From IMG/VR virus record IMGVR_UViG_3300022920_000001, positions 1 through 5,534 of that record: a stretch of DNA of 5,534 nucleotides, one strand, 5' to 3'. The number at the start of each line of letters is the position of its first letter. Positions within the stretch are counted from its first letter, which is position 1. Position numbers and translations under genes: made by a program. Under the pieces are notes generated by a model that saw only the letters and a program-made list of their open reading frames with translations, did no database searches and was not told the DNA's origin. This document shows, in pieces, positions 1 through 5,534 of the stretch. This DNA comes from a virus.

Positions 1-127
1 GGAGTTCATACCGTGGTGTTAACATAACAAATAGACTACTAAATCTAGTGAGTATGAAAAAAGTGTTTTACTATCTACAGAAAGTATGAAACACAATATA
101 CAGCAGAAACGAATCCACAAAACGCTA
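1..127. repeat. Terminal redundancy copy 1 (wrap-around of the circular genome)
   Basis: Read directly: ggagttcataccgtggtgttaacataac...gaatccacaaaacgcta is identical to 5408-5534. Confidence 0.97.
14..39 (+). promoter_or_regulatory. Candidate (+)-strand replication origin-like motif (second copy at 5421-5446 in the redundancy)
   Basis: tggtgttaacataacaaatagactac aligns by eye with the remembered phiX174 origin core TGATATTAATAACACTATAGACCAC. About 20 of 27 alignment columns match, including the TTAA, TAACA and ATAGAC blocks. It lies in the non-coding region just 3' of Rep and contains the 8-bp palindrome tgttaaca (17-24). Confidence 0.25.
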
Positions 128-2956: not shown

Positions 2957-3484
2957 ATGAAAACGTTGAAAAACGGTCCACTATCCGCGTGGAAACAAGT
3001 CGAGGCTGGCCGCGTTATTGAGTTTCTCTCAACTAAACCGCGCCATGTTAAATTTCAAATTACCGCTAACTCGCCTGTCGAGATTTGGGCGGCGTCTGAC
3101 GAAGAAATGAGCGATGGTGTGCTTATTGGCGCATCAGACGAAAAAGTAGCTGTGGAATACACAGCAAACGGCACGAGCTATGTCTTGATCAAAGCAGAGA
3201 AAAAAGCAGCCGTATATATAAACGCAGCAGACGTTGACCAAACGGTGCCTCAAGGCGAGAAACCAAGTTTCACAAGCATTGAGCCACGGGTGCGTAATAA
3301 CACTGAGTTTGATCGTATGATGCAGTACGTAAAACTCAATGAGCAGCGCCGCGAAGCGGAGCTAGCCACAGAGCGCGCAGCATTGCGCGCAGAGATGGCT
3401 AAACTGGGTTCAGCTACCCCTGTAGCGGAACCAGTACCAGAGGAGTCTACAGACGATGCTGAAGGAGCTGAGACCACTTCTTAA
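2957..3484 (+). CDS. Hypothetical protein, 175 aa (possible scaffolding or accessory structural protein)
   Basis: I prefer ATG 2957, with Shine-Dalgarno aagga (2945-2949) 7 nt upstream, over the TTG 2891 start given in the track. No motif was recognised. The N-terminal two thirds look beta-rich. The C-terminus has a charged helix (EQRREAELATERAALRAEMAKLG) and an acidic tail (PEESTDDAEGAETTS). It lies between the capsid and peptidase genes. Confidence 0.75.
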   Translation: MKTLKNGPLSAWKQVEAGRVIEFLSTKPRHVKFQITANSPVEIWAASDEEMSDGVLIGASDEKVAVEYTANGTSYVLIKAEKKAAVYINAADVDQTVPQGEKPSFTSIEPRVRNNTEFDRMMQYVKLNEQRREAELATERAALRAEMAKLGSATPVAEPVPEESTDDAEGAETTS

Positions 3485-4064
3485 GCTCCTAAGGTGGGTG
3501 CGGTTATTTGACCGCATCCACAAAGGCCCAAAAAGTGAGTTCGTTTCTACGGATCACATAGAGGCCGCAAGGAGTTTGGCTGACCCAGACGCTTCAGAAA
3601 AGCTATGGGTAAAAATAGAAGCCACAAACAACGATTATAGATATTCACACCCCGAAATAGTCATATTTTGGAAGGCCATGTTTAAACACATGAAGGCACG
3701 CGGCATACCTGTACGCGCCTTTGAATTTACGCGTTCAATGGAACGTCAAAACGAGTTGTTCGATACAGGTCGCACGAAAGCACGTGCCGGCCAAAGTCCA
3801 CATCAAATACACACTTTTCGTATGGAGTCGAAAGACCCAATCACGGGAGTTGTGTTAAAAACGTATAAAGATTGCAGCGCGGCCGTGGATATAATCCACG
3901 CTACACGCGGTTGGAATCTAACGAAAAAAGAGTGGGATGTCGTTGGCGCTATCGGCAAGGAAATCGCACGTAAAAGAAACATTGACATTGAATGGGGCGG
4001 GGACTGGCAGTTCTACGATCCCGCACATTGGCAATTAAAAAGTTGGAAGACGCTACTGCACTAA
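3456..4064 (+). CDS. Zinc D,D-/L,D-peptidase of the M15 (VanY / phage L-alanoyl-D-glutamate endopeptidase-like, LAS superfamily) type, a putative endolysin, 202 aa
   Basis: The motif order is typical of M15 cell-wall peptidases: TRSMERQNELF, then AGQSPH (His116, nt 3801-3803), then AAVDIIH (Asp145, nt 3888-3890), then WGGDW...DPAHW (His191, nt 4026-4028). Shine-Dalgarno aggag (3441-3445) lies 10 nt upstream of ATG 3456. The ORF overlaps the upstream ORF by 29 nt. Confidence 0.85.
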   Translation: MLKELRPLLKLLRWVRLFDRIHKGPKSEFVSTDHIEAARSLADPDASEKLWVKIEATNNDYRYSHPEIVIFWKAMFKHMKARGIPVRAFEFTRSMERQNELFDTGRTKARAGQSPHQIHTFRMESKDPITGVVLKTYKDCSAAVDIIHATRGWNLTKKEWDVVGAIGKEIARKRNIDIEWGGDWQFYDPAHWQLKSWKTLLH

Positions 4065-4071
4065 CAACGTA

Positions 4072-4118
4072 GGCCCCCCGAAAACGTAAACTCCATATAT
4101 TGGAGTTTTCGGGGGGCC
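4072..4118 (+). terminator. Long GC-rich bulged hairpin between the peptidase and Rep genes
   Basis: ggccccccgaaaac (4072-4085) is the exact reverse complement of gttttcggggggcc (4105-4118). An inner stem tcca/tgga (4092-4095 / 4101-4104) surrounds the loop tatat. An alternative 8-bp stem is aaactcca/tggagttt (4088-4095 / 4101-4108). It begins 8 nt after the peptidase stop and has no U-tract after it. Confidence 0.55.
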
Positions 4119-4179: not shown

Positions 4180-5259
4180 ATGTGTATTTGCCCAAATACT
4201 TTAGATTGCGGTACTGAGGTTGCGTGTCGCGAATGCTGGCAATGCCGAAAACGAAGAGTCAACGATCTCGTTGGAAGATGCATTGCCGAAAGTAAGTTTT
4301 CAGAAAAAACTTACGCTATAACGTTAACGTACAAGCCCACAGAGGGCGTTAACGCAGTGACATTGATTTATAAAGACGTCCAAGATTTTCTCAAAAGATT
4401 ACGTAAGAAATATAAATGTCGCTACATCGTCACTGGAGAATACGGAAGTGCGAAAGGGAGAGCTCATTGGCACATAATTGTATTTTTCAAAGACAATTAC
4501 CCGGAGGTCGACACAAACAAACGGGTTGATTGGAAGTATTGGCCGCACGGCCTTGTATATTTCCAAGAACCCGATTGGAAAGGTTTTGAATACTGTTTGA
4601 AATACGTCCTGAAAGATCAGACGTCACGAACAGCAGACAGCCACTTGGCGATGTCTAAAAAACCTCCACTTGGCGCAGAGTATTTTGAGTGGCTAGCGGA
4701 TGAACACGTGGCCCAAGGCCTCGCTCCGCAAACGTACTTCTACAAATTTGGAGACGTACGGGACGCCAAAAACCGAGACAAAAGCTTCATAATGACAGGT
4801 AAAACAAAGGAAAACTTTATGGAAAGATTTCTTCAAAAATGGGTTGAGCAATATGATTCTGAACCCTTATCTGAGATTGTAGACGAATATTTCGATAAAA
4901 TCACAGAAATAGAATATACCGATGAAGAGCTGATCAAGCGATTACATTATAAGCCCGTCAGATATACCTCCCCAGCCGCTCAGCAGCGAGAAGCTGCGCA
5001 CAATCCTATGGATTACGCAATTCTTCACGAATTAGTTTACCGCGGCATACCGCTTGCGGTGTGGGAGTATGACGACAAATTTCATATCATAACGGAGAAC
5101 GACGAATGGCAAGAAGATCGAAAAGAAGTAGTCGAAGAAATCAAAAAACGGTCCAGAACCCTACGCAAGCGCAGCGCCAGCGAAATACGGCGCAAAGAGT
5201 GGCAAGAATTGGAGAACAATTCAGAGGGTATAGCCCTCTCGCCACAGGAGTACGCGTAA
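4180..5259 (+). CDS. Rolling-circle replication initiation protein (HUH endonuclease; phiX A / gokushovirus VP4 family), 359 aa
   Basis: Motif I is AITLTY. Motif II is GRAHWHIIVF (HWH at nt 4465-4473). Motif III has paired catalytic tyrosines, YCLKYVLK (nt 4591-4605), matching the YxxKY arrangement of phiX174 protein A. The N-terminus has a Cys cluster (C2, C4, C10, C16, C19, C22). Shine-Dalgarno gaggt (4167-4171) lies 8 nt upstream. Confidence 0.95.
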   Translation: MCICPNTLDCGTEVACRECWQCRKRRVNDLVGRCIAESKFSEKTYAITLTYKPTEGVNAVTLIYKDVQDFLKRLRKKYKCRYIVTGEYGSAKGRAHWHIIVFFKDNYPEVDTNKRVDWKYWPHGLVYFQEPDWKGFEYCLKYVLKDQTSRTADSHLAMSKKPPLGAEYFEWLADEHVAQGLAPQTYFYKFGDVRDAKNRDKSFIMTGKTKENFMERFLQKWVEQYDSEPLSEIVDEYFDKITEIEYTDEELIKRLHYKPVRYTSPAAQQREAAHNPMDYAILHELVYRGIPLAVWEYDDKFHIITENDEWQEDRKEVVEEIKKRSRTLRKRSASEIRRKEWQELENNSEGIALSPQEYA

Positions 5260-5429
5260 GCACTCCAAGCGCCGCCGTAGCACCTCCTGAAAAGGAAATA
5301 GCGAAGCGAAAAAAACCCCATAATAAAGAATGGTCAACGAAGTTGCGGTTAAAGTGCAAGGGAAAGCCCAAAAGAAACAAGCCGAAAGGCGCAGGTGCGG
5401 GCACAAGGGAGTTCATACCGTGGTGTTAA
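5106..5429 (+). CDS. Candidate overprinted gene: 107-aa highly basic protein in the +1 frame over the Rep 3' end, extending across the circular junction
   Basis: Shine-Dalgarno ggag (5094-5097) lies 8 nt upstream of ATG 5106. The ORF overlaps Rep by 154 nt, then stays open for 170 nt through otherwise unassigned sequence. It ends at TAA 5427-5429, which is circular coordinate 20-22. It is very Arg/Lys-rich. Caveat: the region is purine-rich, which keeps several frames on both strands open by composition alone. Confidence 0.3.
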   Translation: MARRSKRSSRRNQKTVQNPTQAQRQRNTAQRVARIGEQFRGYSPLATGVRVSTPSAAVAPPEKEIAKRKKPHNKEWSTKLRLKCKGKPKRNKPKGAGAGTREFIPWC

Positions 5430-5534
5430 CATAACAAATAGACTACTAAATCTAGTGAGTATGAAAAAAGTGTTTTACTATCTACAGAAAGTATGAAACA
5501 CAATATACAGCAGAAACGAATCCACAAAACGCTA
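5408..5534. repeat. Terminal redundancy copy 2 (wrap-around of the circular genome)
   Basis: Exact 127-nt match to 1-127. The match runs to the last base of the window, as expected for an assembly or linearisation overlap. Confidence 0.97.

Follow-up and report, generated by a model that had tools for sequence, protein, structure and literature searches.

The stretch of DNA studied here is the IMG/VR virus record IMGVR_UViG_3300022920_000001, analysed over its entire length of 5,534 nt (the window), and our subject is the open reading frame (ORF) at 3456-4064, which lies between an upstream gene and the gene for the replication initiator (Table 1). Its product is a putative lysis peptidase of the LAS/M15 type in which the turn between the first two presumed zinc ligands is opened by an insert of 22 residues, predicted to fold as a beta-hairpin. 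Because an exact 127-nt direct repeat is found at both ends of the window (1-127 and 5408-5534), the window represents a complete circular genome of 5,407 nt. The same unit length results from a second, independent assembly (L005), a contig of 5,548 nt in which the repeat is 141 nt long. Every long ORF of the window is on the + strand.

At the DNA level, the cultured Roseobacter phages CRPss-151 to -153 are 72% identical to the window across 72% of the genome and share its gene order, and CRPss-155 is 73.6% identical across 68% of the genome. CRPss-151 to -155 have been placed in subgroup 11 of the proposed subfamily Occultatumvirinae (PMC11499846), and, judged by sequence, the genome in the window is that of a marine Occultatumvirinae microvirus.

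Identity, predicted fold and catalytic residues of the peptidase

Profile searches matched the peptidase to the endolysin family PHROG 465 (7e-18), and a sequence search of the PDB matched it to ChiX, LysECD7, LysB4 and Ply500. The protein is 51-54% identical to the annotated M15 metallopeptidases of CRPss-151 to -155. The AlphaFold (AF2) model, with a mean predicted local distance difference test score (pLDDT) of 87.8 and a predicted template modelling score (pTM) of 0.78, has the LAS fold, that is, an antiparallel sheet with flanking helices and a flap that forms a cleft. Comparison of this model with the PDB by Foldseek returned 5opz, 8q2g, 2vo9, 6akv and 23ri at a probability of 1.0 (E 9e-7 to 1.6e-4), followed by VanY and LdcB. 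These results bear out the M15/LAS assignment made in an earlier, sequence-only reading of this DNA, which had also given the ORF, its coordinates and the residue numbers H116, D145 and H191 exactly. A fold search of BFVD recovered family members only, with query-normalised TM-scores of at most 0.69, and no entry there matched the full architecture.

The same reading had proposed a search with profile hidden Markov models (HMMs) as a check, and its outcome was divided. The match to PHROG 465 was clear. In Pfam, where membership is defined by a profile match at or above a curated gathering score, Peptidase_M15_4 (PF13539) reached 19.2 bits over residues 143-193 only and VanY reached 15.3 bits over residues 65-108, each with a cutoff of 25 bits. 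Peptidase_M15_3 (PF08291) returned no match for the window peptidase.

Both the Asp/Glu-x-x-His block and the active-site arginine of LAS/M15 enzymes are present. R93, H116, D145, D188 and H191 are invariant in a family alignment of 32 sequences, and they are retained in all spacing variants with a complete sequence among the 215 proteins of an HMM alignment (see below). Their counterparts in LysB4 are Arg50, His80, Asp87, Asp129 and His132, of which Arg50 contacts a bound sulfate within the cleft (PMC6354061). Moreover, the DxxH block aligns with the C-terminal His block of ChiX, LysECD7 and LysB4. Outside the insert, the ratio of nonsynonymous to synonymous substitution rates (dN/dS) between the window and its relative L087 is 0.07, indicating strong purifying selection. 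By sequence motifs and predicted fold, the ORF unambiguously belongs to the LAS/M15 peptidoglycan peptidases with the fold of an L-alanoyl-D-glutamate endopeptidase; its zinc binding and bond specificity are presumed.

The solved L-Ala-D-Glu endopeptidases, namely ChiX (5OPZ), LysECD7 (8Q2G), the enzymes of RB49 and T5 (23RI, 2MXZ), Ply500 (2VO9) and LysB4 (6AKV), share the LAS fold, the SxH, AxD and DxxH blocks and the arginine with the window peptidase at 20-24% identity. In contrast to it, all of them have H-x6-D spacing (His80 and Asp87 in LysB4) and lack both a beta-arm and its N-terminal extension of about 60 residues. Ply500 and LysB4 additionally differ from it by their C-terminal wall-binding domains.

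An insert between the first two presumed zinc ligands

The textbook first motif is SxHxxGxAxD, and the LAS/M15 signature is commonly taken as a fixed H-x(3-6)-D. Ordinary members of the family read SPHQYGMAVD (H-x6-D). In the window peptidase, 28 residues rather than three to six separate H116 from D145 (S114-P-H116 ... S141-A-A-V-D145); on either side of the insert the two halves of the motif are preserved, and Ser stands in place of its Gly.

An HMM was built from the family alignment (A1; 32 sequences, seven rows with the insert) and used to align 215 proteins, which comprised 71 homologs from a word-indexed search and 144 cluster representatives from an exhaustive HMMER search with 281 clusters below 1e-30. 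Residues 118-139 (IHTFRMESKDPITGVVLKTYKD) occupy insert states directly after SPHQ, with edges that are ambiguous by a few residues. The two alignments confirm the H116-x28-D145 spacing and the insert of about 22 residues that the earlier reading had described, and they refine its site from about nt 3804-3878 to nt 3807-3872. A check for a second ligand at normal spacing gave the same answer, residues 118-139 being pure insert states in the family alignments.

The two ligands are six residues apart in 187 of the 215 proteins and five residues apart in another five. A spacing of 11 is found in 11 proteins, all from one subclade, and a spacing of 23-48, equivalent to 17-42 extra residues, in eight (about 4%); the His or Asp column was unmatched in four. 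Among 80 related IMG/VR loci, four carry a long insert. On these alignments, the His-Asp turn looks like a general indel hot spot of this peptidase family.

The subclade with a spacing of 11 (P0029-P0038 and P0061) has a 5-residue insertion at the same site (HNIGGLGLSAAVD). Its members have no precomputed Pfam label, and GSEF replaces GGDW further along the protein.

The insert lowers the Peptidase_M15_4 score. Removal of residues 118-139 in silico raised it from 19.2 to 30.0 bits (cutoff 25), and the match then extended over profile positions 3-69 and covered the His block. A natural pair of relatives differs likewise: P0009, which has no insert, scores 38.9 bits and P0008, which has one, scores 22.9 bits. 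Therefore, the precomputed Pfam label is absent from all seven insert-bearing proteins of a large protein collection in which most relatives are labelled.

An assembly artefact was considered as the source of the insert and rejected, the identical protein being present in independent JGI, ENA and Logan assemblies. Other contigs, independent of these, contain related inserts as well.

Predicted shape of the insert

In the AF2 model, the insert forms two strands, 119-126 and 133-141, with a six-residue turn between them, and the second strand continues directly into the canonical strand 143-148 that holds Asp145. Mean pLDDT values of 10-residue blocks over the insert are 92-95. The model of P0008, with 35 residues between the ligands, has the same architecture with longer strands (115-126 and 132-144). 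Hydrophobic and charged residues alternate along the strands of the window insert (F121 and M123 versus R122, E124 and K126; L135 and Y137 versus K136 and K138), a pattern that would fit a hairpin with a single apolar face. In place of the tight HxxG turn, the models confidently show a beta-hairpin arm.

The strands of the predicted arm are paired, which should bring its two ends close together. Without the arm, the stretch from ligand to ligand (H116-Q-I ... C-S-A-A-V-D145) has about its normal length in the model, and the metal site can presumably stay intact. The corresponding ligands of LysB4 are carried by flap helix alpha-4 (the first His) and strand beta-2 (the Asp), where two subdomains meet at the cleft (PMC6354061); therefore, the arm should emerge at the rim of the catalytic cleft.

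Evolution of the insert

A neighbour-joining tree built with the insert columns removed contains two insert-bearing groups. The window falls in clade A together with four relatives (78-94% identical, plus P0005 at 64%); an insert is present in every member of this clade, and the ligand spacing is 28-48 residues. In clade B, a tight cluster with 2-9% DNA divergence, arm-less, 25-type and 35-type alleles are intermingled; L057 is one of its members with a 35-type insert. A third insert lineage, P0094, has 23 residues between the ligands.

P0008 and P0009 differ by a clean in-frame indel of 87 nt that directly follows SPHQ and by a change from GGA to TCG (Gly to Ser), the remaining DNA being about 94% identical. 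In L089, the hairpin unit occurs twice in tandem within the 44-residue insert (TFRFESKNEETEKLVTF and TFRFEVKNSSTKKKLVTY), a duplication for which none of 2,000 shuffles reaches the alignment score of the two copies. All insert variants are in frame; they start with Ile, Leu or Val followed by a His three residues past the ligand His, and they end with an aromatic residue or Cys followed by Ser or Cys. This second His (His119 in window numbering) is conserved in every insert-bearing variant.

Tests of selection on the insert involve few codons and non-independent pairs and are indicative only. Between the window and L087 (clade A), dN/dS is 0.58 in the insert, as against the 0.07 given above for the remainder of the gene; both parts have the same synonymous divergence (0.29), and nonsynonymous changes are about tenfold enriched in the insert (Fisher p = 4e-6). 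For the pooled 35-type alleles of clade B, the ratio of nonsynonymous to synonymous differences per site (pN/pS) is 0.14 in the insert and 0.07 in the rest of the gene. The clade B pair L020 and L057 shows an excess of synonymous changes (binomial p = 1e-5), with a pS of 0.72 in the insert versus 0.09 in the rest of the gene (Fisher p = 9e-7 for insert versus flanks), and a sliding window along clade B sequences shows a local dip of identity at the insert. We read the clade B insert, on these indicative tests, as a translated and constrained segment that may be older than its flanks; recombination would then be the likely cause of its scattered presence and absence.

Two further ideas about the insert were tried and rejected. 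An overprinted gene was sought in the +1 and +2 frames of 10 insert-bearing loci, which contain stop-free runs of 2-83 aa and no conserved ORF. Copying from elsewhere in the same genome was sought by six-frame local alignment of four inserts, and the scores lie within the shuffle range; a high self-genome score of contig L090 arises only from the two genome copies in that contig.

N-terminus and export

The earlier reading had described the N-terminus as cationic and amphipathic and as lacking a signal peptide, and this description holds. The helical hydrophobic moment of residues 6-23 is 0.66, the maximum of the protein, and is reached by 65 of 2,000 shuffles of the first 30 residues; the net charge of the first 25 residues is +5. 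No membrane-spanning hydrophobic stretch was found in the peptidase, in which the best 19-residue Kyte-Doolittle mean is 0.91 and falls in the insert/strand region, not at the N-terminus. The protein has the features of neither a signal peptide nor a signal-anchor-release (SAR) endolysin. AF2 predicts a helix at residues 3-22 with moderate confidence (pLDDT about 65), followed by a low-confidence linker with pLDDT below 50 at residues 23-26 and no regular secondary structure at residues 23-33.

The start of the peptidase gene overlaps the end of the upstream gene by 29 nt (3456-3484), as the earlier reading had stated, and CRPss-151 has a counterpart of this overlap at 4978-5006. Conservation of the N-terminal family consensus RPxxxxLRxxRxxDR reaches well past the overlap, so that the helix belongs to the family at the protein level and not only to this genome.

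A possible partner for export is the 62-aa product, which has tblastn matches in 39 of 86 related loci (40-87% identity). In its alignment (A4), a basic N-terminus precedes two hydrophobic segments, of which the first is Gly/Ala-rich and the second holds an invariant Asp51. The Pfam profile Phage_holin_10 scores 15.6 bits against a cutoff of 27 and gives sub-threshold matches in 6 of 12 members (best E 5e-4), and the holin family PHROG 565 does so in 5 of 12 (best 8e-3). The protein is annotated only as hypothetical in the CRPss phages, and a holin is not mentioned in the subfamily papers examined. We regard it as a reasonable, if weak, holin candidate by sequence similarity.

Other genes and features of the genome

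Table 1. Features of the window on the circular microvirus genome, with coordinates in nucleotides of the window
Feature	Position	Strand	Remarks
Small protein, 62 aa	192-380	+	Two hydrophobic segments; candidate holin partner
ORF, 230 aa	469-1161	+	Position of the pilot protein
Capsid protein, 554 aa	1237-2901	+	Name follows the annotation of its CRPss homologs
Upstream gene, 175 aa from the ATG at 2957	2957-3484	+	ORF open from a TTG at 2891
Lysis peptidase gene (putative), 202 aa, ATG start	3456-4064	+	LAS/M15 zinc peptidase, L-Ala-D-Glu endopeptidase fold type; stop included
Cationic amphipathic helix (predicted), residues 1-23 (MLKELRPLLKLLRWVRLFDRIHK)	3456-3524	+	Hydrophobic moment, charge and AF2 helix
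Arg93 codon	3732-3734	+	Invariant active-site Arg, RSxxxQ block; codon checked
His116 codon	3801-3803	+	First zinc ligand, SPH of the SxH block; codon checked
Insert of 22 residues, 118-139 (IHTFRMESKDPITGVVLKTYKD)	3807-3872	+	Insert states in the HMM alignment, after SPHQ
Asp145 codon	3888-3890	+	Second zinc ligand, AxD block, canonical strand 143-148; codon checked
Asp188-Pro-Ala-His191	4017-4028	+	Catalytic Asp and third zinc ligand, DxxH block; D188, P189, A190 and H191 invariant
Replication initiator, 359 aa	4180-5259	+	Pfam REP_ORF2-G2P 5e-19; PHROG 942 1e-37
Very basic ORF, 107 aa	5106-5429	+	Overlaps the 3' end of the replication gene in another frame

The capsid protein has a median identity of 75% across related loci and no match in Pfam, PHROGs, NCBIfam or PDB sequences, in line with the published statement that only remote-homology tools detect capsid similarity within this group (PMC9753089). 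Searches of Pfam, PHROGs and PDB sequences likewise returned no match for the pilot protein or the upstream gene product, and NCBIfam returned none for any window protein. The upstream gene is kept in 85 of 86 related loci, in which its end always lies inside the start of the peptidase gene. Its product has a strongly acidic C-terminal tail and might be a scaffolding-type protein. The very basic 107-aa ORF is kept in 55 of the 86 loci. In charge and position it resembles Gp10 of the microvirus Ebor, which is likewise encoded by a gene overlapping the replication gene at its 3' end (PMC11980548); Gp10 is a virion protein and a proposed neutraliser of DNA charge (PMC11980548).

A stem-loop at 4072-4118, between the peptidase stop and the replication gene, has a folding energy of -20.5 kcal/mol as DNA (z = -6.4), and no shuffled sequence folds equally well. 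Its core (ACTCCA, a 5-nt loop and TGGAGT) is found at the same site in most of 20 related loci checked. The sequence of the outer stem varies across related loci with its pairing maintained, and a different hairpin takes its place in 3 of the 20. The lack of a T-run sets the stem-loop apart from classical terminators, and it could serve as an origin signal for replication or for the complementary strand. A promoter and terminator scan found fewer promoter-like sites than in shuffles and nothing informative near the peptidase gene.

L090 (ENA contig NODE_6823, 10,689 nt) contains two tandem copies of a related microvirus genome, so that the peptidase and replication genes each occur twice. Either a concatemer or an assembly that read through a circle may account for it.

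Discussion

A peptidase or endolysin-like gene is present in most Occultatumvirinae genomes, in the order VP2-VP1-peptidase-VP4, and a role in lysis has been proposed for it (PMC11499846). Zucker et al. counted a lysis protein among the usual proteins of Tainavirinae and Occultatumvirinae (PMC9753089), and Rhizobium microviruses have an annotated endolysin, the lys gene (PMC9512667). Peptidase M15_3 genes of Gokushovirinae and Alpavirinae were proposed to be endolysins in 2012 (PMC3394797), and a zymogram has shown the activity of the peptidoglycan hydrolase Gp7 of Ebor (PMC11980548). The sequence-only reading had taken the peptidase of the window for an unusual, probably horizontally acquired cargo. 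This view had to be abandoned, as the gene is present in most Occultatumvirinae genomes, where it is already annotated at the same position. Similarity to the CRPss peptidases and a position between VP1 (plus one unnamed gene) and VP4 argue for orthology, and on this homology the window peptidase is the usual, already annotated lysis gene of the Occultatumvirinae.

The closest annotated counterparts, the M15 enzymes of CRPss-151 to -155 (e.g. XAO36509.1, PP558214.1), lie at the same site between the upstream and replication genes and share the 29-nt overlap, the N-terminal extension and the catalytic residues with the window peptidase. Unlike it, they are about 180 aa long, have H-x6-D spacing and no arm, and reach the Pfam threshold for Peptidase_M15_4. 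Homologs in Rhizobium, Tortoise, Flyfo and Rattus microviruses belong to the same family (29-50% tblastn identity) and also lie upstream of the replication gene, but those examined have canonical spacing and no long insert. The M15_3 genes of human-associated Gokushovirinae and Alpavirinae are carried by microviruses too and encode peptidases of the same zinc peptidase clan, but they represent another Pfam family (PF08291) and separate acquisitions (PMC3394797). Ebor, a member of the Tainavirinae that infects Rhodobacter capsulatus, likewise has an alphaproteobacterial microvirus hydrolase, Gp7, and a small membrane protein encoded upstream of the pilot gene (PMC11980548). Gp7 differs from the window peptidase in its length of 146 aa and its best HHpred match, 6SSC_A.

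What is new is the insert, the gene family and its lysis role having already been described for Occultatumvirinae. A text search of microvirus papers found no mention of an insertion in the enzyme, and the CRPss paper contains neither "insert" nor "insertion". Provisionally, we consider the insert undescribed so far, the text search not having covered the wider literature on LAS enzymes.

We propose that the ORF encodes a lysis endopeptidase with an intact catalytic set, a dispensable accessory beta-hairpin arm beside the cleft and holin-type export, and we give this reading a probability of about 0.7. The tight turn H-Q-Y-G-x-A-V-D would have been opened and a two-stranded beta-hairpin arm set in its place, and the turn Gly, no longer needed, would have been replaced by Ser or Cys. 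The arm would be an accessory module and not a catalytic necessity, because most relatives, the cultured ones among them, lack it, because its length varies by indels and tandem duplication, and because alleles with and without it occur in near-identical genomes. It probably projects from the edge of the catalytic cleft, at the junction of the flap subdomain and strand beta-2. As to its role and the export route, we infer that the arm may modulate peptidoglycan binding or access to the cleft and that the enzyme would reach the wall most likely through the 62-aa membrane protein, which would act as a holin and provide a conventional way out. For the cationic amphipathic helix at the N-terminus, the earlier reading had suggested a part in membrane access, and this helix may assist membrane association.

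Several points weigh against this reading. The insert is found in only seven of the 32 alignment rows, and the confidence of the modelled arm may be optimistic. AF2 models no zinc, and the ligand geometry and the position of the arm are taken from predicted secondary structure. In clade A, the insert dN/dS of 0.58 is indistinguishable from neutral (p = 0.37). All matches behind the holin assignment of the 62-aa product are sub-threshold, and lysis activity is attributed to the window enzyme and to the M15_4 orthologs of microviruses by homology.

Alternatively, the insert may be a tolerated loop expansion without function, in which a permissive turn is lengthened by slippage, duplication or recombination and selection acts only against misfolding. 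The states x5, x6, x11 and x23-48 of an indel hot spot, the absence of the insert from most relatives, its gain or loss among near-identical genomes, the tandem duplication in one variant and a clade A dN/dS that does not differ from neutral (0.58 versus 0.07 in the rest) would all fit such an expansion. However, the pN/pS of 0.14 of the 35-type alleles (p = 1e-5) points to purifying selection, and their high synonymous divergence points to long maintenance. Moreover, His119 and the hairpin pattern are kept in three lineages, and clade A has kept its insert across 36% protein divergence (window versus P0005) in a 5.4-kb genome. We hold a functionless loop to be possible, although on the doubtful side.

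It is conceivable, if unlikely, that the arm is a swappable specificity or regulatory module, polymorphic in phage populations and moved by recombination, with His119 in a remodelled metal site. If this were true, the lysis enzyme would be under balancing or diversifying selection, for example by host peptidoglycan chemistry or host-encoded inhibitors.

A further proposal makes the arm a regulatory lid or latch that covers or distorts the cleft, so that the enzyme would stay latent while in the cytoplasm and be activated by export or by a periplasmic cue. The endopeptidase of phage T5 has a calcium-dependent activation loop, the purpose of which is comparable to that of the proposed latch. The arm is predicted to emerge between two metal ligands at the flap/sheet junction, and His119, which is close to the ligand His116 and invariant in insert-bearing variants, could reach the metal. 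However, insert-free alleles in near-identical genomes evidently do without an arm, and a latch seems to us quite improbable.

We give very little credence to the idea that the peptidase is a virion-associated entry enzyme, tethered by its helix to packaged DNA or the inner capsid and opening the peptidoglycan ahead of the pilot protein as the genome is delivered. A basic helix that is conserved at the N-terminus and followed by a flexible linker, a feature absent from ChiX- and T5-type enzymes, would suit such a function, and Gp7 of Ebor was found in purified virions (PMC11980548), but in trace amounts, which speaks against a structural component. The published reading for Occultatumvirinae is lysis (PMC11499846), and the genome contains a candidate holin.

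Finally, the reading that there is no true insert, the first ligand being lost (Lys138) or His119 binding zinc in an enzyme that is inactive or has another metal site, can practically be set aside: a phmmer pairwise alignment sets the ligand His of LysB4 over Lys138, and His119 is invariant in insert-bearing variants, but loss of the first His ligand is ruled out by the family alignments, in which the SPH block, His116 included, never varies and lines up without a break with the sequences that have no insert, with residues 118-139 in insert states only, and by the clean P0008/P0009 indel right after SPHQ, while excision of the insert restores a full-length Pfam match including the His block and the dN/dS of 0.07 in the rest of the gene is as expected of an active enzyme.

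On the preferred reading, that of a lysis endopeptidase with an intact catalytic set and a dispensable hairpin arm, the His-Asp turn of LAS/M15 enzymes can take up a hairpin of 17-42 residues while the catalytic residues and purifying selection on the remainder are retained. The opened turn has a bearing on motif-based annotation and may be a permissive grafting site in endolysin engineering. Insert-bearing lysis genes, with Pfam scores below threshold, are easily overlooked in viromes. Cultured relatives of the insert-bearing phages exist for testing, and the presence/absence polymorphism with its island of divergence provides a small and tractable case of modular evolution and recombination in a single-stranded DNA phage of 5.4 kb.

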